64,000 nt of DNA from Octopus vulgaris (Eukaryota), in assembly GCA_951406725.2 (NCBI GenBank), contig OX597819.1:97588001-97652000 (forward strand), read 5' to 3'. Of the stretch, positions 1,050-54,962 are shown piece after piece. Each line of letters starts with the position of its first letter. Position 1 is the first letter of the stretch. A program made the position numbers and the translations under genes. The notes below the pieces were generated by a model, which ran no database searches, was not told the DNA's origin, and saw nothing but the letters and a program-made list of their open reading frames with translations.

Positions 1050-1141
1050 CGCGCGCAGAGGGACTTGAACCCGCGACCCTCAGATTTCATAACACGGTAG
1101 TTCTTAAAAGTCTGATGCTCTACCGACTGAGCTATGCGGGC
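1050..1141 (-). tRNA. tRNA-Lys(UUU) with 19-nt intron, copy 1 (C3-C70 acceptor mismatch)
   Basis: Reverse complement GCCCGCATAGCTCAGTCGGTAGAGCATCAGACTTTTA[AGAACTACCGTGTTATGAA]ATCTGAGGGTCGCGGGTTCAAGTCCCTCTGCGCGCG. The 73-nt body closely resembles eukaryotic tRNA-Lys(TTT), with the intron at 37/38 and T-runs downstream. Confidence 0.88.
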
Positions 1142-1188
1142 TGACATGCGACTCAATGATGATTTAAATAGATTAAATCTTTTGAACT

Positions 1189-1228
1189 TGAAATCTGAGG
1201 GTCGCGGGTTTAAGTCTCTCTGCGGGCA
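1189..1228 (+). pseudogene. Orphan tRNA-Lys 3' half (intron end + 3' exon), inverted
   Basis: TGAAATCTGAGGGTCGCGGGTTTAAGTCTCTCTGCGGGCA. No 5' exon; B-box C56 changed to T; followed by an inverted copy of the tRNA 3' flank. Confidence 0.85.
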
Positions 1229-2089
1229 ACGAGTTTTCTTTTTGGAAATTGTCCCAGAAGAAATTACCAATTGACTGGTTTCAAGTATGGGAATTTAAAT
1301 TTCTATAATTCAATTGATTGGATGTGGAAACAGCTGCAAGCAGGAATTTCTCTGCATCAATTCGAATTTCTTTGAATTCGGAAATGCCCAACGTCGTCGA
1401 GTTATATCGAGGGAATGCCCATATTTTAACAATTGGCTGTGTCTTCATGGGGTCACTCTGCATGCTCACGCTAATGTATATTGACTATTCTTTACAGGTT
1501 TCTATTAAATGTGTGAGTGTGATTTTCATTCTTTACCAAAGGATATCTATCTCTCTATATATCTTGTTTTCTGGCACTAATATCATAATATCTTAAATAA
1601 TCAATAGTGTTGTTCTTAATGCGCAGTTGTGGTGCAACGAAGTTTAATATATGAAAATACATGATAATTTAATAGGAGCCATTGTGTGTGATTTTTGATG
1701 GCTGAAATGGATCTAGTACCATGTAATTGTATGCTTCTTGATAGATGAAAACTGTAGTCAGAGATCTATACTCATGCTTCATAGAATTACCAGGACCGTC
1801 AGTTAATTTACTTGTGACAATGATTAAATTTCACTTGTTTCAGTCGTTAGACTGTGGCCGAAGATGATGACATATCGTGGTAGGAATAAAACAGCAAAAG
1901 ACTGACTGCTAATGGAAATAGAAGAGCGTAAAAATATTTCGAAAGACCGGAAGGACATTGCCAAGCTGGAAAATGTGATGGGCAGCAAGAAAGGAATGAG
2001 CAAAAAGGGAAAACAAATGTTAGAGTTGCAGGGTGAAAATGTATTCGACCACGAGAAAAAAGAAATGGTATTGCAAGAAAATAATATGT

Positions 2090-2181
2090 CGCCCGCAGAG
2101 GGACTTGAACCCGCGACCCTCAGATTTCATAACTCGACAGTTCTTAAAAGTCTGATGCTCTACCGACTGAGCTATGCGGGC
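2090..2181 (-). tRNA. tRNA-Lys(UUU) with 19-nt intron, copy 2
   Basis: Fully paired acceptor, D and anticodon stems; intact A/B boxes; intron AGAACTGTCGAGTTATGAA; TTTT downstream. Confidence 0.93.
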
Positions 2182-2604
2182 TTCCGGCCGCCCAGTTTAA
2201 CTTTTAGACGATTGAAATATGGACTTAGCTACACATTCCTTGTTAACTGAAACGATTGTTGTATAAAGCCGTCATCTGGTATCTTACGTCACCTCGTAGT
2301 GATTACTAATAATTCCTTCACATTTACTACTGATATTTAATGCAGTAATTCGTTCACTCATCAAGTCCCATCCTGGTAAAGTCAAATTGGTCATTCAAAA
2401 TGTATATACACTATTCTCTTTCAATTATAATCTTTTCTACCCTAGGCACAAGGCCCGGCATTTTTGTGGAGGGGGCCAGTCGAATAGATCGACCCCAGTG
2501 CGCAGGTGGTATAATATAGCACTGTACCTATGCCTATGTTTAGCCCCTTGTGGGTAATAAAGAAACAGGTATAATATAGCCCTCATCTGTTTCAGTTGGG
2601 ACAC

Positions 2605-2844
2605 GAGAACTATGTTATGAAGTATTTTTCCATATTTCTCCTGAAAGAGGTGTCATTCTTTGGACATTTGTAGAAGGAAAAGATCTTAAATTTTCCTTCT
2701 CCACATGTATCTGGGTATTTACTCAGCGAAACACCTAGAAACATGTGGAGAAGGAAAATTTAAGATCTTTCCCTTCTACAAATGTCCAAAGAATGACACC
2801 TCCTTCAGGAGAAATATGGAACAATACTTCATAACAAAGTTCCC
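2605..2844. mobile_element. MITE-like fold-back element (~110-bp arms)
   Basis: 2605-~2715 is the near-perfect reverse complement of ~2733-2844; the right arm recurs at 1-90. Confidence 0.7.
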
Positions 2845-2923
2845 CACCAAATTAAATGGCTGAAAATATTTCTATAATAATTTGTACTAGATGAAGGACC
2901 ACTTTTGTAAAGTAAATTGTATT

Positions 2924-2996
<73 letters not shown>

Positions 2997-3222
2997 CACA
3001 CAAACAGTACTACACATATGTACATATACATAAATAAAAACACTCTTTCATCCAGATTCTCCATCCCATATCAGCACAGGTATCAAACATTGGATTGAAA
3101 GACTCACCAGTTGCAAAATTGTAAACACATTTTTTCTTCTTGTTTCCCTCCTCCTCCTCCTTCCTTTCATCCCCTTTCCCATTTGACACTTCCTTTCAGA
3201 TACACAGACACCAAAACACACG

Positions 3223-3268
<46 letters not shown>

Positions 3269-3811
3269 AGACAATAATATGAAAGAAATTCAGACAATTT
3301 CTTTAAAAGTGACATTTTGCTCCGCTTGGAGTGACCAGCTGGGTTTGCCATTTCTAAAAACTAAGAATCACTTACCATTGAAAGACTGACCAGCTGCAAA
3401 GATATCAGCAATTTTTTCTTCTTTCTCTCCTTCTTCTTTCTTTCCTTCTCTTTTTCTTTAACACTTCTTTAAGATACAAAAACACACACGATCTCTCTCT
3501 CTCTCTCTCACTCACTTTCTCCCCATTCTTCACCCTCTTGTAGTATCTTATATCTCTCCCCGCCCCTACACACTCAATAATACTATATAAGGAGACAAAA
3601 TTCCTGCAAAAGTTCAATTTGAAAACTCCACAGGGTGGACGAAAGCGCTTTTATATGATATATGATTCATAAAAACATGTAACATGCTAGTAATTATCTG
3701 TACATATAAACATACCAATACATATCTGTAAATATAAAACCATCCAGCAAATATAAAACCAACCAGTCAATTGGACATTTCTTCTGCAACAATTTCCAAA
3801 AGAAAATTTGT

Positions 3812-3903
3812 CGCCCGCAGAGGGACTTGAACCCGCGACCCTCACATTTCATAACACGGCAGTTCTTAAAAGTCTGAGGCTCTACCGACTGAGCTATGCG
3901 GGC
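3812..3903 (-). pseudogene. tRNA-Lys(UUU) intron-containing copy 3, probably defective
   Basis: Same 92-nt gene but C40>G breaks the anticodon stem (G30-G40) and A26>C. Confidence 0.8.
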
Positions 3904-4151
3904 TGACATACGAGTCATGGAAAATTTAGATAGATTAAATCTTTTGAACTTAGCTACTAGATACATACGTACATACATACATACATACATACATACATGC
4001 ATGCATGCATGCATGCATGCATGCATGCATACATACATACATACATACATACATACATACATACATACATGCATACATACATACATACATACATACATAC
4101 ATACATACATACATACATACATACATACATACATACACAAACAATACTCAG

Positions 4152-4192
4152 ATGAAATCTGAGGGTCGCGGGTTTAAGTCCCTCTGCGGGCG
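4152..4192 (+). pseudogene. Orphan tRNA-Lys 3' half, inverted (second copy)
   Basis: ATGAAATCTGAGGGTCGCGGGTTTAAGTCCCTCTGCGGGCG, with the same C56>T change as 1189-1228. Confidence 0.85.
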
Positions 4193-4457
4193 ACGAGTTT
4201 TCTGTTTAGAAATTGTCCCAGAAGAAATAACCAATTGACTGGTTTCAAATATGGGAATTCAAATTTCTATAATTCAATTGATTGGATTGTGGAAACAGCT
4301 GCAAGCAGGAATTTCTTCGCATGAATTCGAATTTCTTTGAATTCGGAAATGCCCGATGTCGTCGAGTCATATCGAAGGAATGCCCATATATTAACAATTG
4401 GCTGTGTCTTTATGGGGTCACTCTGTATGCTCACGCTAATGTATATTGACTATTCTT

Positions 4458-4539
<82 letters not shown>

Positions 4540-4752
4540 CATATATATATATATATATATGACAAAAAGAAGATGGAAGAAAAAAGAAGTACAGAAGTTA
4601 TCTATTCAAAGAAATTCGAATTCCTGCAGAGAAATTCCTGCTTACAGCTGTTTCCACACCAAATCAATTCAATAAAAGAAATTTAAATTATCACATTTGA
4701 AACCAGTCAATTAGGTATTTCTTCAGGGACATTTTCCAAAGAAAGAAATCGT

Positions 4753-4844
4753 CGCCCGCAGAGGGACTTGAACCCGCGACCCTCAGATTTCATCACTTGA
4801 CAGTTCTTAAAAGTCTGATGCTCTACCGACTGAGCTATGCGGGC
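4753..4844 (-). tRNA. tRNA-Lys(UUU) with 19-nt intron, copy 4
   Basis: Exons identical to copy 2; intron AGAACTGTCAAGTGATGAA. Confidence 0.92.
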
Positions 4845-5104
4845 AGACAATTACACCAACGAAAATTTAGATAGATTAAATCTTTTGAACTTAGCTACTA
4901 TAAACATACGTACATACATGGAAACATACATACATACATACATACATACATACATACAATACTACATGTAATGGTTACAGTTCCATTGCACAATCTCAGA
5001 TCGTTATAATCCTACATAACACATATTGGCATTCTTTCGATATAACTCGACAACGCATTTTACGAAATTCATTAAAAGAATGTCTGTGGCGTTTCGTCGC
5101 CATA

Positions 5105-5191
5105 TAGGGTTTTAGGGTTAGGGTTTTTGGGTTAAGGTTTTAGGGTTAGGGTTAAGGTTTTAGGGTTAGGGTTCGGGTTTTAGGGTGAGGG
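5105..5191 (+). repeat. Degenerate interstitial telomere-like (TTAGGG/TTTTAGGG)n tract
   Basis: About a dozen variants of TTAGGG, TTTTAGGG, TTAAGG, TTCGGG and TGAGGG. Confidence 0.8.
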
Positions 5192-5679
5192 CTGTCATAA
5201 ATAGTAGTGACAAACGAAATATACACCACCGGAAGTTCTTGCTGACATATAACAGCAGTAATTTTATTCAGCTGAATACACGTTATCGATTGGTTGAAAT
5301 TATCGAAACACGAGAACTTTAAGGTGAAATATCTTCGCAAATATAAGTTTTTCTCAAAAATACTAAGAGTAAAACATGTTTTATATGACACATTCTACCA
5401 GTGTCCGAAGTTTGAAAGTGTTTAGTTAGAAAAAATTATTTTTTAAATCTGTAGGTCAATTATCACCACTCGAACATTGCTGTCGAGAGTTCTAGGATTC
5501 AAGGGGGCGGTTACCTCGTCTCTATGGCGTGTAGGTGACCGTATTACTGCAAATGCTCCTCAATGAGATGCCAGTCCATTGCAGAAAGACTCATTGCAGA
5601 TGAGTGGACTACAGTGGACTACTACTACATACACACACACACACACACACGCACGCACGCACGCGCACACACACACACT

Positions 5680-5717
<38 letters not shown>

Positions 5718-6205
5718 TATAAGAACAACAATGAAGTGTATTTGTTTGACGCCGGGGGAAAATACATGAAAATTTAAGAGGAGCTATTGTGTGTGATTTT
5801 AGATGGCTGAAATTGATCTAGTACGATGTAAATATACGTTTGTTTGTAGATGAAAACTGTAGTCAGAGATCTCTATCCATGCTTCACAGAATTGCCAGTC
5901 AGTTAATTTACTTGATACAATGATTGAATTTTACTTATTTCAGTCATTAGACTGTGGCCGAAGATGATGACATAGCGCGGTAGGAATAAAACAGCAAAAG
6001 ACTGAATGCTAATGGAAATAGAAGAGCGTAAAAATATCTCGAATGACCGGAATGACATTGCCAAGCTGGAAAACGTGATGGGCAGCAAGAAAAGATTGAG
6101 CAAAAAAGAAAAATTTTGAATGAGAACTGTAACAGCAGCAAGGTGAAAATGTGTTTGACTAAGAAAAAGGAAAAAAAAAAAATGGTATTGCATGAAAAAA
6201 TTTGT

Positions 6206-6297
6206 CGCCCACAGAGGGACTTGAACCCGCGACCCTCAGATTTCATAACACTACAGTTCTTAAAAGTCTGATGCTCTACCGACTGAGCTATGCGGGC
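6206..6297 (-). tRNA. tRNA-Lys(UUU) with 19-nt intron, copy 5 (G5-U68 wobble)
   Basis: Intact cloverleaf; intron AGAACTGTAGTGTTATGAA; TTTTTT terminator just downstream. Confidence 0.92.
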
Positions 6298-20582: not shown

Positions 20583-23161
20583 CAGTGGCGACTCCGGCAC
20601 TCAGGCTGTTCGGGCTTAGCCCGAGTATAAATTTAACAAAGCATTAAGTGAACGCATATTTGCAAACTGATTTAATTTTTCCCAACACTGACTATATGCA
20701 AGTAATTGCAGCCAACAACTCGGGCTCCTTTTATTGAGCCGGGTCGTAGTTCATTTATATTTTGTTCAGCGTCTAGCGGTCGTCTTAGAGGTGCTCGGTG
20801 TCAAAAAATTCGTAGCAGACGTTTTCTCGACATCTTTCACATGCGCCCGACTCGGGCTCAGAAGTTACAGCCCGAGTTGTTATCTATAATCGTAAAAGTT
20901 AAAAGTAATTCAAATTCAATGTTTTCTTGAAACAATAAATTTCTATGGAGATTAGGATTTAGATTCCAATTTACGAAAAGTTTCCGTTCTACAATATTCT
21001 GAAAGGAACGATAAATTATCCAGCAACTCGGGCTTTTACGAACGAGCCTGGTAGGTTTAGAAGACTAACTGGAATCCCTTGTCAAGAGTACTGGCAACAG
21101 TCAGATCGCTGATGTTTGTTGTGCACTCCGCTGTCATTATTTGATTGCTGTTATTCTGGGCGTCTGTGTGTTTTGCAGGGTTGTCTTATTTTTAACCTTA
21201 ACTTAGAAATAGAGAAAGACATGGTGCTAGATATAAAAAATAAACCATTTGACGCTAGAAATATTGCAGAAAACGTGAAATTCTTCGAGCAGGCAGGCCG
21301 AATCCTTCATCGAAAACCAAAGTTGGAACTTGAACATTTCAGATAAAATGGTATGAACAGATTGATTGGCTTTGTGCAAGTAGCGTCACGGAGAAACTCT
21401 ACTGCTGGCTATGCTTGTTGTTTCAACCAAAAGCTAATCAGTCATGGACAGGTGAAAGTTAGGATAATTATCAAAACATCCTGAGTGACTGTAAGCACCA
21501 CAGTATATCAGTGAATCATTTAAGTAGTTAAAAAAGCTTGAAAACTTTCGGACTGTACGATATTGTGACAGCAATTAGTGAGTCTGCCAAACTGGAAAAA
21601 GAACGGCATGAAGAAAATAGACATTATTTAAAGCAGTTAACAAATGCAATGTTATACCTGTGTAAATAAGAGTTGCCGTTATGTAGACATGACAAAGGAA
21701 GTGACAGCCTTAATAGAGGAAGTTACCGTGAACGATTTCAGTGTTTTGTTGAAGTCGACAACGTGTTTGCTTCTTGACTTTCTACTAAAGAGGAGTCGAA
21801 ACAGTTCTCAGGAGTCTCAAGCACAATACAAAATGACCCAATACAAGCGATTGGAAATGTCATCTCTGATGAAATTAGAAGCGAAGTTGATAAAGCTCCG
21901 TTCATGTCTGTACAAGCCGACGAAACTACAGACTCTGCAATGCATGTCCAACTATCGATCATAATAAGATATGCATATGAAGACAAAACATGTGAACGAT
22001 TTCTTGGATCCTATGAAGTCAGTGTTGATAAAAGTGCCACAAGACTGGCTGATGTGATCGCAACTGCGTTGAACTCCTTCAGTCATGCTACCGATAAATT
22101 AGTGAGTCAGACTTACGACGGGGCAGGTGTAATGACAGGAACGCTAAACGGAATACAGAGCTAGCTAAAGGATAAAGGATTTAAACACGCGCACTTCATT
22201 CACTGATATGCGCATAAGCTTAACTTAGTCTTGAGTAAAAGTGCCGAGAAGGTGAATGGAATAAATATGCTTTTTTTCTCATTTACGCGCATTTAGTAAA
22301 TTTACATCTTCCAGTACTAAGCGGAAAAACGTTTTCAGGCAGCTTAATGTCAGTATTCCATCACTGTGCGAGACAAGATGGTGCTATAGATCAAGAACTG
22401 TGTCCTCCATAAAACTATTGCATGAAAACTCGAAAAATGTCTTCACAAGTATTCTATGCTCTAGTGAAAAGTGGGATGAAAATACACTTTGTCAAACAGA
22501 CAATCATTTGGCGAAGTTGAATGATTTCACATTCGTGTTTTTCATCAGTTGCTTTCATAACATACTTTCTCAGGCTGGAAAAATCTTTGATATCCTGCAG
22601 TGTAAGCTACTCGATATAAAGCATGGTCAGAGTAAACTAAGCGACTCCATTCATTGTGCTGAAGGTTATCGTATGGACGAACATTATGAAAACATTCTGC
22701 GCAATACAGCTGCTGTCATTGAACAGGCAGATGAGTCTGATCCATCTCTTAGAAAATGAGTCAGAGGTGCACAAATTAATTACAAAATTACCTATTTTGA
22801 AATAATTGATATCGTTCTGATGTCCTTACGAGAGAGATGTTCTGGCATTCAAGAGGATGCATTTAAAAAAATTACTAGACGTTAAGTTTGGCTCGGATTT
22901 CTATCGAGAAAAGCATTTTGAACGACGTGGGCAACAAGAAGGAGCTGCATGACACGAGTTCGCCATCAAACCAAGACGACTGGAGTTCATATATAAATGA
23001 AGTGAGTAATTTTTATATCAAAACTATATTTCGGTCTTATTGTTAAATTATCAGTGTACATATAACTCTGCGGTGTGCTTTATGCTTCTTTCTTTCTTTT
23101 ATACATGTGTCTTATGCAAAATCTGTGATGAGCCCGAGTGACGCGGATGACCTGTAGTCGC

Positions 23162-24305: not shown

Positions 24306-24397
24306 CGCCCGCAGAGGGACTTGAACCCGCGACCCTCAGATTTCATCAATCGACACTACATAAAAGTCTGATGCTCTACCGACTGAGCTATGCGGGC
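24306..24397 (-). tRNA. tRNA-Lys(UUU) with 19-nt intron, copy 6 (older paralogue)
   Basis: Exons identical to copies 2 and 4; diverged intron TGTAGTGTCGATTGATGAA of the same length; TTTTTT terminator. Confidence 0.93.
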
Positions 24398-27127: not shown

Positions 27128-28370
27128 GATTGATTGATTGATTGATTGATTCTAGTTTCAGCTTATGAGCTGTGGCCATGCTGGGGCACCGCCATTTGGT
27201 GTTGCTACTTGGTTTCACTTCATGGAGGCTTTCTAGCAACTGCTATTTGGTGCATGAGAGAGTTCGATGCAGCTGCCCTCATCTGCCCCTCCTGCCGTGA
27301 AGTTGGTTCATCTGGGACACCTGACAGGAAGAGATCCAGCTCCATTTTAAAGACATCTGTATCCACCCCATGCAGGTCTCTCAGGTTCTTCGGGAGGATA
27401 TTGAAGAGCTGTGGGCCTCGGAAGCCCAGGCTATCACAGAATCTTGTCCTACATCTTGATGGCAAGTTTGGAGTCCTAGGCACCACGCAGTGGCGCCCAG
27501 TTCTGGCATTTGCGTAACTCTCGATGCCAAAGTTCAGGACACTTCCCTCCAGGATCTTCCAGATGTATATTATGGCATATCTTTCCCGCCTACGCTCCAG
27601 GGAATATAATTTTAATCTCTTGAGTCTTTCCCAGTAGCTTACATTCTGCATAGAGGCTATCTTCTTCGTGTAGCTTCGTTGGATCGCCTCAAGTTCTGTG
27701 ATCAACTTGACACTGGATGGTGACCATAGCTGAGAGCAATAGTCAAAGTGGCTTAGGACAAGTGTCTTCCAGAGGACCATCATGGTTTCTTGTTCTCTTG
27801 TTCTAAAGGTTCTAAGAATCCAGCCAGCCAGCCGTCTGCATTTCATTGTCAGTTTAGCAACATGTACATGAAAGGTCGCGTCATCACTCATGTGAATACC
27901 CAGGTCACGCACTGATTGTGCCTCTGGGATTGCAATCCCTCCGGGTCCAGTGTATTCCTTGGGTATTGCATTCAGTTTTGCATGCTGATAGTATAAAGCT
28001 TGAAACTTTTCAGCATTGAACTGCATGCTATTCTTTTCAGCCCACTTGTATATTTCGTCCAGCTCATATTGCAGGTGCTTAGTGTCTTCAGGGTTCTGTA
28101 TTGCCTGTGAAACTTTTGTATCATCTGCATAACTTGTGATCGTGGCTCTCCGCGTGGCTGAGGGCATGTCTGAGAGGGCCATTATGAACAGTAGTGGTCC
28201 CAAAACAGTGCCCTGTGGAACACCGCTCACTATTTGCGTGCTAATGGAAGTGGCCCCATTGGCTACTACCACCTGACTTCTATTCTTCAGAAAGTCGTGA
28301 AGCCATTCTCCTAGTTTTCCAACTATGCCAAGATCACGCAGTTTGTGACATATCATTCCATGATCGACTT
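27128..28370 (-). mobile_element. 5'-truncated CR1/L2-group LINE with uninterrupted RT C-terminal half
   Basis: ORF 27220-28370 has KVDHG, SGVPQGTVLGPLLF, SYADDTK, DLGI and YSLERRRERY. 3' end GGCGGTGCCCCAGCATGGCCACAGCTCATAAGCTGAAACTAG(AATC)n. Confidence 0.92.
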
Positions 28371-28381
28371 TATATATATAT

Positions 28382-28413
<32 letters not shown>

Positions 28414-28549
28414 GCATACACACATACACGACAGAAGTAAATAGACATCGCATAAATCATCGTGTTATGTTTATTCTAACTTGTAAAAGTTTATATTTTT
28501 TATTAATTGACATTTTTATGTTTCAGATTCTGTATGTGACTGTTTAATC

Positions 28550-29546
28550 CTGCCATGTAGAAAAGAAACCTTGGAATTGTCTGAATTTCAAAGAGACCGT
28601 ATTGTGGGCGTAGCGTAAAATCGCAGAAAACATTGGGATCTCGCTTTCTATAGTTAATAGAGTGATTGTGCAATTCACCAGAGAGGAGAAGGGGTCCACA
28701 TCACCTCGTTCAGATTGACTAGGTCTCTTGACAGGCCTCTTCTCTTTGTTACGAGAAGTGTGGAGGATAATCCTCTTTGCAAGGCCTCTGACATAGTAGA
28801 ACAAGTTGATGTCAGTCCCAGAACAGTTGTCAGGTATCTCCACAAACTTGGTTACTATGGCAGAGTAGCAAGAAGGAAGCCACTTCTTCGACCAGCTAAC
28901 ATCAAGCGGAGAAAAGACTGGGCTAGTGAGATGGTAGAGAGGCCAATAGCATTTTGAGACACTGTCATATTCTCTGATGAGTCCAGATTTCCTGTATTTC
29001 CTGAAAGTGGTCGAGTGTAGGTCTGGAAACACTGTGATCAAGAATTTAATGTGAAAAGATTGCAGCCAACAATGGAACACGGCAGCTATTCTGTGATGGT
29101 GTGGTGAGCAATTTGAAGTAATGGTTGATCTGAACAGGTGAAATATGAGGGAAACATAAACCCAGATAAATATATGTACACATTGCAGAAAGGACTCCTT
29201 CCAATCTTCTCCAGTAGTGAAATGATTAAAGAAGACTATTGATGGAAGATGAAGCTCCTTGTCACACGGCTAAAATGACTCAAGATTTGTTGTATGAGAA
29301 TGGCATTAAAAAGTTTCCATGGCCAAGCCAGTCACCAGATATGAATCCTATTGAACAACTCTGGGACATAATGGACAGGATACTTTATAAAAAGAAAAAG
29401 AAAGCATCTTCAAAGCCAGTTCTTTTGAGATTACTGCATGAAACTTGACAAGAAGTTCCGCAAGAAAATATTCGTAATCTGATCAGTAGCTTGCCTAATA
29501 GGGTCCTTGCATTGAAAATGCAAAGGGCATGTCTACTAAATATTAA
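28550..29546 (+). mobile_element. Second Tc1-family transposase pseudogene
   Basis: GRVARRKPLL, FSDESRF, EDEAPCHTAK, WPSQSPDMNPIEQLW and GMSTKY*; no TIRs recognised. Confidence 0.85.
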
Positions 29547-29601: not shown

Positions 29602-29680
<79 letters not shown>

Positions 29681-29747
29681 GGTCCCGGGTTGATTCAGGG
29701 GTTAACCACAGTAAGTAAGGTACTCAATACATAGCAGAGTAAAATTA

Positions 29748-29876
29748 ATTTATTATATAGAAGGAGCTTCTACAGGACTAGTACTGTTTCATTCAAGAGA
29801 AATCTTCAGGAAGCTTCCTGAAGATTTCTCTTGAATGAAACAGTACTAGTCCTGTAAAGCTCCTTCTATATAATAA

Positions 29877-30004: not shown

Positions 30005-30017
30005 TTCCTCTCACACC

Positions 30018-30069
30018 GTCTCCGACGAAGGAATATTATTAATTAATATACTAGAAATAGCTGTAAGAC
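30018..30069 (+). ncRNA. Degenerate type I hammerhead ribozyme motif
   Basis: GTCT-CCGACGA-[AT-rich hairpin]-GAAA-TAGCTG-TA-AGAC. Stem I is GTCT/AGAC; U4>C and a stem III mismatch are present. Confidence 0.45.
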
Positions 30070-30138
30070 CTTCTATCTATAAATGCTCTAATATCTATAC
30101 AGCTTGTTTTTTTTTATCTTATTACGCAAAAAATTCTT

Positions 30139-30170
<32 letters not shown>

Positions 30171-30234: not shown

Positions 30235-30579
30235 GATGACGGCTGCAAACTCGTGTTCGAGTATTGGCATCGCCTCATCGAAAGTCCCACAAATGCGTAG
30301 GTCTTACAATTTTTCCAGCGATGCCTGTACATCATCTTTTATAGTGGGGAAAGCATTTACACAAATCCAATCCCATTCTCTGAACATGGACAACATACAC
30401 TCGAAGAACTAATCAACATCATCGAATACTGTCAGTGTCGTAGGTTTTCTTTCAAAGTTTCCTTCTCCTAGAGAGATACTGTGGCTACAACAGTGGGGCA
30501 ACCGCGCGCCTGGAAGCAACCCAGGTATATCCACGTATGTATATATATACATACAAACATACATACATACATACATACA

Positions 30580-30613
<34 letters not shown>

Positions 30614-30619
30614 CATACA

Positions 30620-30674
<55 letters not shown>

Positions 30675-30679
<5 letters not shown>

Positions 30680-31342
30680 TTAAAATTACTAAGTCTCTCT
30701 AAAAGAGAACAGCGGCAGCGTTCCCGGAAAATAATAGTTATCGCCATACTAATATGGCATTCTTATAAAAATAAGAATAAAGCTGTCCGCTTATTAGCTC
30801 CATGAGGCCATCGCCTTAAGTTAGCTATTTGATACACAAACTGTATCCATATAATGTTCGAAGGTTATATGGATACAGTTTGTGTATCAAATAGCTAACT
30901 TAAGGCGATGGCCTCATGGAGCTAATAAGCGGACAGCTTTATTCTTATTTTTATAAGAATGCCATATTATATGGCGATAACTATTATTTTCCGGGAACGC
31001 TGCCGCTGTTCTCTTTAGAGAGACTTAGTAATTTTAATATTTCTATTATTGAAAACAAGTGGATGTATTTCACCGAAACTAGGTAAATAAAACCATCGAA
31101 CAGAGATTGTCGGAAGCGACACCTACTGGCTGGCTACGCTGCATTGAAAAGGGGCAATACCCCGAAACGCGTCTGTAGCTGCCGGTCAAGTAGTGTGGAG
31201 CGACTGACCTCCCTTGTTCGAAGGTTATATGGATACAGTTTGTGTATCAAATAGCTAACTTAAGGCGATGGCCTCATGGAGCTAATAAGCGGACAGCTTT
31301 ATTCTTATTTTTATAAGAATGCCATATTAGTATGGCGATAAC

Positions 31343-31348
<6 letters not shown>
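30675..31348 (+). mobile_element. Penelope/retrozyme-like element: 180-bp 5' inversion + ~1.4 tandem copies of a 360-bp unit
   Basis: 30675-30854 is the reverse complement of 30865-31042; 30855-~30990 repeats directly at 31215-31348; flanked by (TA)n. Confidence 0.8.
31123..31193 (+). ncRNA. Type I hammerhead ribozyme, U3-A8 core variant
   Basis: GCTGCA-TTGAAAA-GGGG CAATA CCCC-GAA-ACGCGT-C^-TGTAGC. Distal stem I TGGCTGGC/GCCGGTCA and CTACT/AGTAG; predicted cleavage after 31173. Confidence 0.82.
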
Positions 31349-31391
<43 letters not shown>

Positions 31392-31436
31392 CACATACAT
31401 ACATACATACATACATACATACATACATACATACAT

Positions 31437-31486
<50 letters not shown>

Positions 31487-31519
31487 GTATTATGCATGTA
31501 TATATGTGCGTGTGTTTAT

Positions 31520-31742
31520 GTGCGTACATGTTTGTGTCTGTGTTTGTCCCCACCAACATCGCTTGTTAACCGGTGCTTGTGCGTTTACGTCCCCGTAAGT
31601 TAACGGTTCGGCAAAGATACCGATAGAATAAGTACTACGCTTACAAAGAATTAGTCCTGGTGTCGATTTGCTCGACTGAAGGCAGGCGGTGATCCAGCAT
31701 GGTCGCAGTCAAATGACTGAAACAAGTAAAAGAATAAAAGAA
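31520..31742 (+). mobile_element. SINE 3' half
   Basis: TTTGTCCCCACC...GTCCCCGTAA...CAGCATGGTCGCAGTCAAATGACTGAAACAAGTAAAAG. Confidence 0.75.
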
Positions 31743-33088: not shown

Positions 33089-33635
33089 CAAAATGGGACA
33101 AGAACGCAAAACATCCGGACAACTAGATGATACAAAAAGGGACAACAAAACATCTAGATAGACGATACAAAAAAACAAGGACGGGTCATTCGAAGCTTTC
33201 TATCCTCAGTCAAGAACCGGATCATCTTCGCATGTATATATACACATTTAATATTTGACTTGTCATTCAAGATACACGTACATTTCATCGTTACTAACGT
33301 TATTTTGCGTTAAAGTTCTCTACCAGTTGCTTTGCATACATTTCATATTTTGTCAATCATTCATGATATATGTATATTTCATCAAGTTCATTTCACCATT
33401 AAATATATATGTACATATCAGTCCTAGCATTGTTATGTTTGTGTTAAAGCTCCCTACCATGTGCTATGTGTACATTTCATACTTTGGTTTTTTGCATCCC
33501 CGTAACCTACGAGTTCGGCCGAAGAGACCGATAGAATAAATGTTAGGCTTTAAAAAATAAATTCCTTCGATTAGAACCCTTCAAGGCGGTGCCCCAACAT
33601 GGTCGCATTCCAATGACTGGAACACGTAATATATA

Positions 33636-34026
33636 TTCTTTTATTCTTTTACTTGTTTCAGTCATTTGACTGCGGCCATACTGGTGCACTGCCTTGAAGG
33701 GTTTTAGTCGAACAAATCGACCCCAGGACTTATTTCTTAAGTCTAATACTTATTCTATCGGTATCTTTGCCGAACCGCTAGGTTATGGGGGCGTTAACAT
33801 ACCAACACTGGTTGTCAAGCGGTGATGTGGGGACAAACACAGACACAAAACGCACACCACACACATAGATGTATATACACATACATACATACATACATGC
33901 ATACATTCCTTTCTGTCGAAGAGCGTAGGCTCGAAACGTAAAAGACTTTCTCACTTCCCGATCGTTAAACTAATACATCTTATTTACGCACCCATCTTCG
34001 TTTTTTGTTTCTTTGTAAATTCTCAC

Positions 34027-36409: not shown

Positions 36410-36636
36410 TATATATATATATATATATATATATAAACAATGATAAATATCAAAGTGAGTTATATACAGTAGCGGTAACACATCGTGACGTATATTTGCC
36501 ATCTCAATATGGCTACCCCTAAGGGTGGATGCTACTGTAGTTTTTAGCCCCAGGAGGACACACTCCTCCAGCTGGCCATAGACACACTTTCTGTGTCCTG
36601 TCAGTATTTGCAAAGGGAAGTCATCCTTCCCGTCTT

Positions 36637-36706
36637 CAACTTATGATACACACGGACTCGAGTTTCGAGGTATTGACCTCTCGTCAGCGTGTGACAATCA
36701 TAGTTG
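36637..36706 (-). ncRNA. Type I hammerhead ribozyme, canonical core (downstream copy)
   Basis: CAAC-TATGAT-TGT-CACACG-CTGACGA-GAGGT CAAT ACCTC-GAA-ACTCGAGT-C^-CGTGTG-T-ATCATA-A-GTTG; predicted cleavage 36655/36654. Confidence 0.9.
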
Positions 36707-36988
36707 TCGGCGAGAATTAGATTTCCTTCACAAATACTTATACTTTTTCCAGCGTCCACTGTCGCTGATATTGAAAAAGTGAAATCAAACAATGATAAAT
36801 ATCAAAGTGAGTTATATACAGTAGCGGTAACACATCGTGACGTATATTTGCCATCTCGATATGGCTACCCCTAAGGGTGGATGCTACTGTAGTTTTTAGC
36901 CCCAGGAGGACACACTCCTCCAGCTGGCCATAGACACACTTTCTGTGTCCTGTCAGTATTTGCAAAGGGAAGTCATCCTTCCCGTCTT

Positions 36989-37058
36989 CAACTTATGATA
37001 CACACGGACTCGAGTTTCGAGGTATTGACCTCTCGTCAGCGTGTGACAATCATAGTTG
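36989..37058 (-). ncRNA. Type I hammerhead ribozyme, canonical core (upstream copy)
   Basis: Identical to 36637-36706; predicted cleavage 37007/37006. Confidence 0.9.
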
Positions 37059-37106
37059 TCGGCGAGAATTAGATTTCCTTCACAAATACTTATACTTTTT
37101 CCAGCG

Positions 37107-43134: not shown

Positions 43135-43179
43135 TTACTAAATCTAGATTTCAGCGTCTTTGCGCGTCATCAGTAGCAA
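43135..43179 (-). ncRNA. Type I hammerhead-like motif
   Basis: TTGCTA-CTGATGA-CGCGCAAAGACGCT-GAA-ATCTAGAT-T^-TAGTAA. Palindromic stem III; stem II has a C-U mismatch at its base. Confidence 0.6.
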
Positions 43180-51253: not shown

Positions 51254-51257
<4 letters not shown>

Positions 51258-51316
51258 AAATTTGATTTAATACTAAATTAAATTTTTCCCTGTAAGTTTG
51301 GAGTTATACTCCTTAA

Positions 51317-51368
<52 letters not shown>

Positions 51369-51428
51369 TTAAGGAGTATAACTCCAAACTTACAGGGAAA
51401 AATTTAATTTAGTATTAAATCAAATTTC

Positions 51429-51431
<3 letters not shown>
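51254..51431. repeat. Perfect ~67-bp inverted repeat around a (TA)n spacer
   Basis: GTGAAATTTG...CCTTAATATTT-(TA)n-AAATATTAAGG...CAAATTTCAC. Confidence 0.9.
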
Positions 51432-54089: not shown

Positions 54090-54387
54090 GAAAAAACAAG
54101 TCAAAAATAGAAAATGCTAAGATAATTTTATAGTGAATCTTTCGTTTTTAAACGACCTCGAACACACAAGTGCAAACAAGGGAGTCAGAGAAAGGCAGAA
54201 TGCTACTTATATCTGAACACTACTACAGAAATATTCTTTTAAAAAAACTTTTCTTCTAAATTTTCTAAATTTAATTATTTAATCGTTACAGTTGAAAAGG
54301 TCTCAAAATGACCGAAACCGGTACTGAAAGATTCACTAAAAAATTATCTTAGCATTTTCTATTTTTGACTTGTTTTTTCATATATAT
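54085..54387 (+). mobile_element. Penelope-like fragment with ~58-bp terminal inversion, inserted at (TA)n
   Basis: 54085-54143 is the reverse complement of 54326-54387; contains a hammerhead. Confidence 0.7.
54281..54333 (+). ncRNA. Type I hammerhead ribozyme, U3-A8 core variant
   Basis: AATC.TTA-CAG-TTGAAAA-GGTC TCAAAAT GACC-GAA-ACCGGT-A^-CTG-AAA-GATT; predicted cleavage after 54323. Confidence 0.7.
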
Positions 54388-54413
54388 CAACTCGTGTGTT
54401 CCTTTCCACCCTT

Positions 54414-54470
<57 letters not shown>

Positions 54471-54962
54471 TGTATGTATGTATGCGAGTGTGTTTGTCCA
54501 CCACCACCACCACCACCACCGCTTTACAACTGGCGCTAGTTTCTTTACATCCTGTAAGCTATCGGTTCGACATAAGAGACCGATTGAATAAACACCAGAC
54601 TTAAAATGAGTACTGGGTTCGATTTGTTCGACTAAAACCCCGAAGCTCGTGTCCTAGCATGGCGGTAGCCCAATGACATACATACATATATACATGGTGG
54701 TTAGGCTGTTGCACTCATGATCGCTAGATCGTGGGTTCGGTTCCCTGACAGGGTGGCGTGTTGTGTTCTTGAGCAAAACAGTTCATTTCTCATATTTCAC
54801 ATTGCTCTAGTCCTACTTCGATCAGTGGGGAATGTTGGCCTGCTCACCTAGCCAGAGGAGTGGCATCGTTTGAAGGCTAAAACAAAGCAAAAGCGAATTG
54901 TGACCAGCGATGTGTAACAATATCTGATAGACTGGTCTGTCACGTGATCACGTAATCACATG

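Follow-up and report, generated by a model that had tools for sequence, protein, structure and literature searches.

A retrozyme-like element with a U3-A8 hammerhead core and Penelope-type insertion anatomy in the genome of Octopus vulgaris

Which enzyme moves the retrozymes of animals, and whether it does so from RNA circles, is the question at stake at a small ribozyme-bearing element of Octopus vulgaris. The metazoan non-LTR retrozymes were described by Cervera and de la Pena in 2020, with mussel units of 350–390 bp, and self-cleavage and circle ligation were demonstrated for those of coral, mussel and axolotl (PMC7229834). A review of the same year, in its accessible text, presents the animal retrozymes without a conserved motif that points to a helper (PMC7761336). 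The element lies in a window of 64,000 nucleotides (contig OX597819.1, positions 97,588,001 to 97,652,000), which was the whole stretch of DNA analysed, and it supplies junction-level Penelope signatures on a retrozyme. Its features and those of a related neighbour are collected in Table 1.

The element occupies positions 30675–31348, between two (TA)n tracts of this microsatellite-rich window. The first-pass annotation had described a 180-bp inverted arm with a 10-nt loop, followed by approximately 1.4 direct copies of a unit, all within (TA)n, and sequence comparison confirmed this layout: the arm and its template differ by two single-base indels and no substitutions, and the forward part (30855–31348) measures 494 bp, or 1.37 units, with the stretch 30855–30987 repeated at 31215–31348 and one indel between them. 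The unit length of 360 bp given there holds for the spacing at the locus, but the monomer of the family is 361–362 nt, the shorter spacing being the result of single-base losses in the locus copy, whose private changes are a substitution at 31070 and a base lost near 30970. The 5' breakpoint (30855, corresponding to 31215) is at the base of the ribozyme hairpin, 42 nt to the 3' side of the predicted cut. Of the two ends, the left extends to +230 from the cut and the right to +175, a difference of 55 nt. CTATTAT occurs just twice per unit, and both the right end and position 31049 terminate in it; the outer end of the arm, 31042, falls within the zone in which 3' ends of the family recur. A target-site duplication is unreadable within (TA)n. 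The unit has a G+C content of 41.6%, within the retrozyme range of under 45%, and pairs with itself far above shuffled sequences (z = -6.7; none of 100 shuffles as good). The unit is non-coding, with no open frame above 60 codons found inside the element, and neither ARAGORN nor Rfam gave a match to a tRNA-like head of the SINE type in it.

Table 1. Coordinates in the window of the U3-A8 element, its ribozyme, its hairpins and the sister element
Feature	Positions	Strand	Remarks
Left (TACA)n/(TA)n microsatellite, putative insertion target	30543..30674	.	
Inverted, 5'-truncated unit copy (180 bp)	30675..30854	-	reverse complement of 30865-31042
Junction of arm and forward copy, 10 nt	30855..30864	+	palindrome TTCGAA (30857-30862)
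One full unit, non-coding	30855..31214	+	360 bp at the locus, 361-362 in the family
Second, partial unit (0.37)	31215..31348	+	ends in CTATTAT against (TA)n
Right (TA)n/(TACA)n microsatellite	31349..31505	.	
Zone where copies meet flanking DNA	31042..31049	+	candidate priming site, with second CTATTAT
Long carrier hairpin, ribozyme at tip	31097..31220	+	extended stem I, 3x1 internal loop six pairs from core
Type I hammerhead	31138..31179	+	U3 = 31144, A8 = 31149; predicted cut after C17 = 31173
Stem I, 6 bp	31138-31143/31174-31179	+	
Core UUGAAAA	31144-31150	+	
Stem II, 4 bp	31151-31163	+	loop CAAUA
GAAA	31164-31167	+	
Stem III, 2 bp	31167-31172	+	within palindrome ACGCGU
Hairpin 1, common to both units	31232..31248	+	+58 vs +57 from cut
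Hairpin 2 (two helices), common to both units	31252..31284	+	about +80
Hairpin 3, common to both units	31321..31336	+	+148 vs +142
Sister element, 1.9 copies of a 352-bp unit	36436..37106	-	C3-G8 hammerheads, in (TA)n

The unit had been proposed to hold an extended hammerhead with UUGAAAA in place of CUGANGA, and this was borne out: the motif is a full-length type I hammerhead, present once per unit. The elements of a hammerhead core (NUGANNA, GAAA and UH, with a Watson-Crick pair between positions 3 and 8) are present as UUGAAAA, GAAA, UC and U3-A8. The canonical animal geometry has a stem I of 6 bp, a stem II of 4 bp and a stem III of 1–2 bp with a palindromic loop (PMC4209133); the stems here are of 6, 4 and 2 bp, with pair probabilities of 0.94–1.0 in the fold of the circular monomer. 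A strict descriptor recovered three motifs in the window, namely this hammerhead and the two of the 352-bp unit, and none in each of 10 blockwise dinucleotide shuffles, in which looser matches numbered 0–1 per shuffle. The carrier hairpin (about 31095–31222) folds with z = -6.0, none of 200 shuffles being as good. As a double-hammerhead fold (-55.7 kcal/mol) is predicted to be more stable than two monomers (-49.6), the hammerhead probably works as a dimer.

Searches with Rfam models gave no match at E up to 10 for positions 31050–31260, and the C3-G8 sister scores 32.2 bits, i.e. below the hammerhead cut-off of 34. The exact 32-nt ribozyme stretch had no matches in metagenome contigs or in prokaryotic genomes. 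In viral contigs a degenerate U3-A8 core pattern gave at least 120 matches, and among the 120 listed five had a paired stem II and none a 5-bp stem I, so that these were dismissed as chance matches; the U3-A8 core pattern alone is no evidence of a ribozyme.

At least half of the unit's words were present in 20 of the 24 sequencing runs listed (14 studies, seven coded organism labels), one of which may be the source of the window itself. Four of the 20 (X3, X2, X7 and X13) were compared with 30988–31352 at 80% likeness, with differences listed from 4% upwards, and the contigs matched numbered 2301, 1858, 34 and 7, respectively, depth not being equivalent to copy number; such contigs reveal neither the strand nor the ends of an RNA. 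The unit is thus a large, diverged, high-copy family. Among the variant rows, 40 of 44 were listed, including all 19 of X3 and all 14 of X2, and in these two deep runs no variant of at least 4% lies between 31142 and 31181, i.e. the whole core, positions 3 and 8 included, is fixed at a threshold below which a C3-G8 minority would escape detection. The earlier reading of U3-A8 as a compensatory, family-wide state rather than decay therefore held, positions 31144 and 31149 being invariant at 4%, and its alternative, a family consensus of CUGANGA with a decayed copy at this locus, is contradicted at that level by the same contigs of X3 and X2. Decayed copies do exist, as one X7 contig carries four changes in the core.

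Variation elsewhere in the hairpin largely follows its fold. All five well-covered common variants at paired positions (31097, 31112, 31141, 31182 and 31186) preserve the pair, in a count that was made after the fact and leaves out four low-depth rows of X3, and three further well-covered common variants are at unpaired positions. C-to-T changes, by which a pair is always preserved, account for two of the five, and the other three are at G-U wobbles; for the hairpin, preservation is expected in 4 of 30 changes from G to A and in 4 of 15 from T to C. The rows left out (31127, 31129, 31133 and 31138, at depths of 200–544) each break a pair when taken singly: two of them represent a 2-base insertion, one a compensated change and one a true break. 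In a minor subfamily, 31133 and 31182 change together (G-C to A-U) in one X7 contig, and 31125 is linked with 31191 (A-U to G-C) through two contigs that have the 31133 change, the phasing of these double changes being taken from depth sums in tables rather than from contig sequences. The depth of X3 dips at 30988–31013 and at 31118–31143.

The tandem form is a property of the family. The head-to-tail joint 31348 to 30988 (361 nt back) was found in all four runs (8, 2, 1 and 1 contigs), and a 392-nt contig from X13 forms a self-closing monomer of 362 nt; the tandem monomers of retrozymes, approximately 170–400 nt with a type I hammerhead in each, have their counterpart in this unit of 360 bp at the locus and 361–362 nt in the family. 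The locus copy has one complete hammerhead, as against the two of an active retrozyme copy, and none of the contigs listed spans two. An extra base at 31013 is polymorphic (38–44% in the deep runs), being present in the inverted arm and absent from the forward copy, which fits two templates or a homopolymer slip. Among the loose ends listed, which are 23 of 223 rows, (AT)n stands behind 31049 in 16 contigs of X3 (agreement 0.56), unique flanks behind 31045 and 31048 in one X7 contig each, and a TA run before 31215 in one X7 contig; the last of these and the locus make two cases and give a hint that the 5' breakpoint at 31215 is recurrent. The inversion junction of the locus was absent among the joints listed for the four runs.

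A second element with C3-G8 hammerheads is situated 5 kb away, and the copies of its 352-bp unit differ by one mismatch in 321 bp. The two units had been held to look unrelated, and BLASTN with a word size of 7 indeed gave no link between them, but that assessment could not be upheld in the light of alignments, three common hairpins and matching 3' ends. A ribozyme-anchored global alignment of the 361-nt and 352-nt units gave z = 6.7–8.5, and without the ribozyme z = 4.7–6.6, with none of 500 shuffles reaching either score. The ribozyme-free local alignment contains 117 identities over 216 columns; when the ribozyme-free stretches were left unjoined and shuffled in blocks, z was 3.0–5.8 (0–1 of 500), and the pair outscored 1115 or 1116 of 1116 other stretches of the window, depending on the scoring scheme. 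The three hairpins follow in the same order in both units, and the 352-bp copy ends at +219, beside the aligned zone at +230 to +237. Of 35 pairs in seven helices, 21 are identical, 3 have one-sided and 11 two-sided changes, and none is broken; the 20 of these pairs that lie outside the ribozyme give 16, 1, 3 and 0. It should be noted that the helices were picked from the folds of both sequences, so that the zero breaks are to some extent a consequence of that choice. Between the two families, the 3-8 pair too shows covariation (U-A vs C-G). Judged by these sequence comparisons, the 360-bp U3-A8 unit and the 352-bp C3-G8 unit are distant homologues and colinear.

As to the agent of movement, published Penelope-like insertions comprise a partial tandem, an inverted 5'-truncated copy, one extended end and (TA)n targets (PMC8557442). 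The first-pass annotation had likened the inverted-plus-partial-tandem layout in (TA)n to Penelope-like integration, and in the accessible text of that source the two agree; a partial tandem with an inverted 5'-truncated copy in a microsatellite is what the locus presents. The element carries neither the RT nor the GIY-YIG domain of an autonomous Penelope-like element, and it is not one. Pfam searches of 146 window frames (145 of the 147 non-repetitive frames of at least 70 codons and one added; 265 frames of that length in all) gave RT and DNA-transposase fragments and no match to GIY-YIG, and an autonomous partner was not found within the window.

We consider it probable that the locus is a copy of a high-copy, non-coding element of the non-LTR retrozyme type, mobilised in trans by a Penelope-like protein with RT and GIY-YIG domains. 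In the sequence of events that we propose, multimeric transcripts would pair two hammerheads via the palindromic stem III and be cut after C17, and ligation of the resulting monomers may yield circles. The structured RNA would be bound by a Penelope-like protein, which would then cut (TA)n; reverse transcription would begin at an internal CUAUUAU-bearing site, 175–237 nt 3' of the cut, both strands of the target acting as primers at the two CUAUUAU sites. The two cDNAs would stop near +42, at the foot of the ribozyme hairpin, and their joining at the TTCGAA palindrome would leave the inverted arm and the unequal ends. AT-rich DNA is cleaved by purified Penelope protein, which extends the two strands and initiates internally, at two sites of a stem-loop, and the hammerhead cleavage of an anole Penelope element needed the protein and was dispensable for insertion, according to the accessible text (PMC11167929). 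The inserted sequence runs across an intact cleavage junction and has both ends away from the cut, which argues against a cut linear monomer as template. A circular template, to which the partial repeat had been ascribed earlier, and an uncleaved linear multimer suit that repeat equally, and reads across the junction at 31173 are indecisive on circles because tandem DNA and read-through RNA share that junction.

Several other histories could be imagined for such a copy. The unit might be merely the pseudo-LTR of an autonomous Penelope-like element, with the locus as its 5'-truncated insertion: the insertion anatomy is identical, Penelope insertions are mostly 5'-truncated in the accounts available, a second U3-A8 motif lies in a Penelope-like insert at 54292, and the loose ends on which a judgement can draw are the small listed part mentioned above. 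That the unit is joined head to tail onto itself in four of four runs, that the share of matched sequence continuing into unlike DNA is zero in X3 and X2, that none of the loose ends listed resembles a constant flanking ORF, and that the ribozyme is of the canonical loop-loop type and not the minimal type described for pLTRs together make this improbable. A satellite that spread by DNA-level processes (unequal crossover or extrachromosomal DNA circles) and carried the ribozyme along as a passenger is very improbable, as the two related families and further hammerhead inserts occur as single insertions with inverted ends inside (TA)n, the 3' ends are clustered and the variation respects the RNA fold; to its credit, tandem joints occur in DNA-type runs, and local tandem amplification is invoked in a recent preprint on Xenopus, as far as its accessible text goes (bioRxiv 10.64898/2026.07.22.740005).

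The chances of a SINE-like element that owes its mobility to a LINE and its inversion to twin priming appear slimmer still, even with LINE-type RT fragments in the window and LINEs proposed as candidate helpers in the literature available. Twin priming inverts sequence from upstream of the break, whereas the arm of this locus is a second copy of sequence from downstream of it; the unit has no poly(A) tail and no tRNA head. An inverted arm that arose as an assembly or read fold-back artefact would account for the absence of the junction from the other runs and for an arm that differs from the forward copy by indels alone, but the mirror image ends at the 3'-end zone of the family and is followed by (TA)n and unique DNA, there are three further inverted inserts in the window, and the missing junction is weak evidence, as short-read contigs collapse palindromes; we give this hardly any credence. 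Finally, the private changes at 31070 and near 30970 could speak for a decayed copy of a canonical C3-G8 family in which both core changes arose by chance. In X3 and X2, compared at 80% likeness, any variants at 31144 or 31149 stay below 4%, by which decay from a C3-G8 form is refuted for any form above 4% of depth, and the probability that we attach to it is close to nil.

When the retrozyme-type copy moved in trans is set beside known systems, it has the testable structural traits of a metazoan non-LTR retrozyme as far as these can be read from DNA. In common with the metazoan retrozymes (PMC7229834, accessible text), it has a non-coding tandem unit of approximately 360 nt, a G+C content under 45%, a self-paired RNA and a canonical type I hammerhead with a weak palindromic stem III, and by analogy with those of coral, mussel and axolotl its transcripts would be cleaved and may form circles. 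It differs from the elements described there in its U3-A8 core and its Penelope-type anatomy (TA target, inverted arm, unequal ends), and also in a three-hairpin scaffold conserved across two families of the window. The endonuclease-bearing Penelope-like elements Neptune, Naiad and Poseidon, in the accessible accounts, share the anatomy and the (TA)n or AT-rich target (PMC8557442, PMC11167929); unlike them, the locus is without an RT or GIY-YIG frame, and its end extension is 55 nt, compared with a published Penelope tail of 30–40 nt (PMC8557442).

Natural hammerheads with the rare U3-A8 pair were reported previously, with in vitro activity cited for covarying 3-8 pairs (PMC3088659), and approximately 1,300 matches to a minimal U3-A8 hammerhead are given for Penelope-like elements of Schistosoma mansoni (PMC4209133). 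The compensatory interpretation was valid, but overstated in so far as it had already been published for Penelope-associated hammerheads in the accessible parts of both papers. The Schistosoma motifs have the same core covariation, one listed family has the heptamer UUGAAAA itself, and they are minimal, mostly single and heterogeneous (PMC4209133, accessible text); the motif of the locus, in contrast, is full-length, with a 6-bp stem I, an internal loop, a long carrier hairpin and a short tandem unit. The 2026 preprint derives the retrozymes of Xenopus from Penelope pLTRs, with one of nine tested retrozyme dimers cleaved in vitro, and in its accessible text proposes a dependence on Penelope machinery similar to that of SINEs on LINEs, as we do here; it draws there on co-occurrence and on pLTR homology in vertebrates, with insertion junctions and core variants left untreated (bioRxiv 10.64898/2026.07.22.740005). 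We found no published cephalopod retrozyme or U3-A8 retrozyme in the texts accessible to us; subscription papers and some supplements (e.g. those of PMC7229834 and PMC4209133) may list such motifs, and a squid genome paper counts 235 Rfam hammerheads without description.

The element class and the core variant are, accordingly, both already known. What is new is the combination of the U3-A8 core with a full-length, high-copy, Rfam-invisible retrozyme family, its homologous C3-G8 sister with a common hairpin scaffold, and the Penelope-type junctions on a retrozyme. The natural pair of homologous C3-G8 and U3-A8 families makes a direct kinetic comparison possible, the candidate recognition hairpins can be mutated in the existing in vitro Penelope assay, and a high-copy ribozyme family that is invisible to Rfam means that genomic hammerhead counts are probably too low. 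A more far-reaching joint reading, which we regard as doubtful, would take the 362-nt U3-A8 and 352-nt C3-G8 families as circular RNAs whose common three-hairpin module recruits the Penelope RT, with fixed internal priming and copying that rolls round the circle; two cDNAs from one double-strand cut in (TA)n would stall at the hairpin foot and anneal at a short palindrome, and U3-A8 would be a selected, slower ribozyme that spares circles as templates. If true, this would provide the first defined cis-signal and junction-level proof for the movement of animal retrozymes, and whole families would be hidden from standard hammerhead searches.

The window holds further inserts of a similar kind. 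A (TA)n-flanked insert at 54090–54412 contains a second U3-A8 hammerhead, of the minimal type, with its core at 54292 (+) and a score of 22.9 bits with Rfam HH9 (cut-off 52). It has a 54-bp inverted arm (54090–54143 mirrors 54326–54379) and a tail of approximately 32 nt, and the template of the arm begins 2 nt past the predicted cut (A17 = 54323), so the arm looks as if copied from cleaved RNA. Pairwise local comparison of the 360-bp unit with five other inserts of the window, this one included, gave no link. The neighbouring fold-back insert in (TA)n at 29678–29876 is, in parallel with the joining proposed at TTCGAA, also centred on a short palindrome, of 8 nt, which supplies the 5' strand of stem I to a hammerhead-like motif of the C3-G8 type (core 29809, -). 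Another C3-G8 hammerhead-like motif, at 43173 (-), has a palindromic stem III and belongs to an insert near a TA run at about 43500. The short insert between TA runs at 30005–30139, with a core-like CCGACGA ... GAAA noticed by eye and absent from the relaxed scan, is possibly a decayed hammerhead. At 51255–51431, two inverted arms of 66–67 bp surround a central (TA)n in a (TA)n-flanked insert.

Other repeats were encountered as well. At least six tRNA-like genes of 92 bp, on the minus strand at 1050–6297 and 24306–24397, have a 20-nt insert in the anticodon loop; ARAGORN, run with no intron model, labels them Stop or Ile, and their alignment suggests intron-bearing tRNA-Lys genes. A degenerate telomere-like TTAGGG array is found at 5105–5191, a DUF4371 fragment at 21778–22161 (+), a LINE-type RT fragment at 27223–28464 (-) and fragments of a Tc1/mariner transposase at 28661–29445 (+). 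Copies of one dispersed SINE-like repeat, which resembles octopus SINEs, stand beside TA tracts at 31490–31740, 33500–33830 and 54480–54680.
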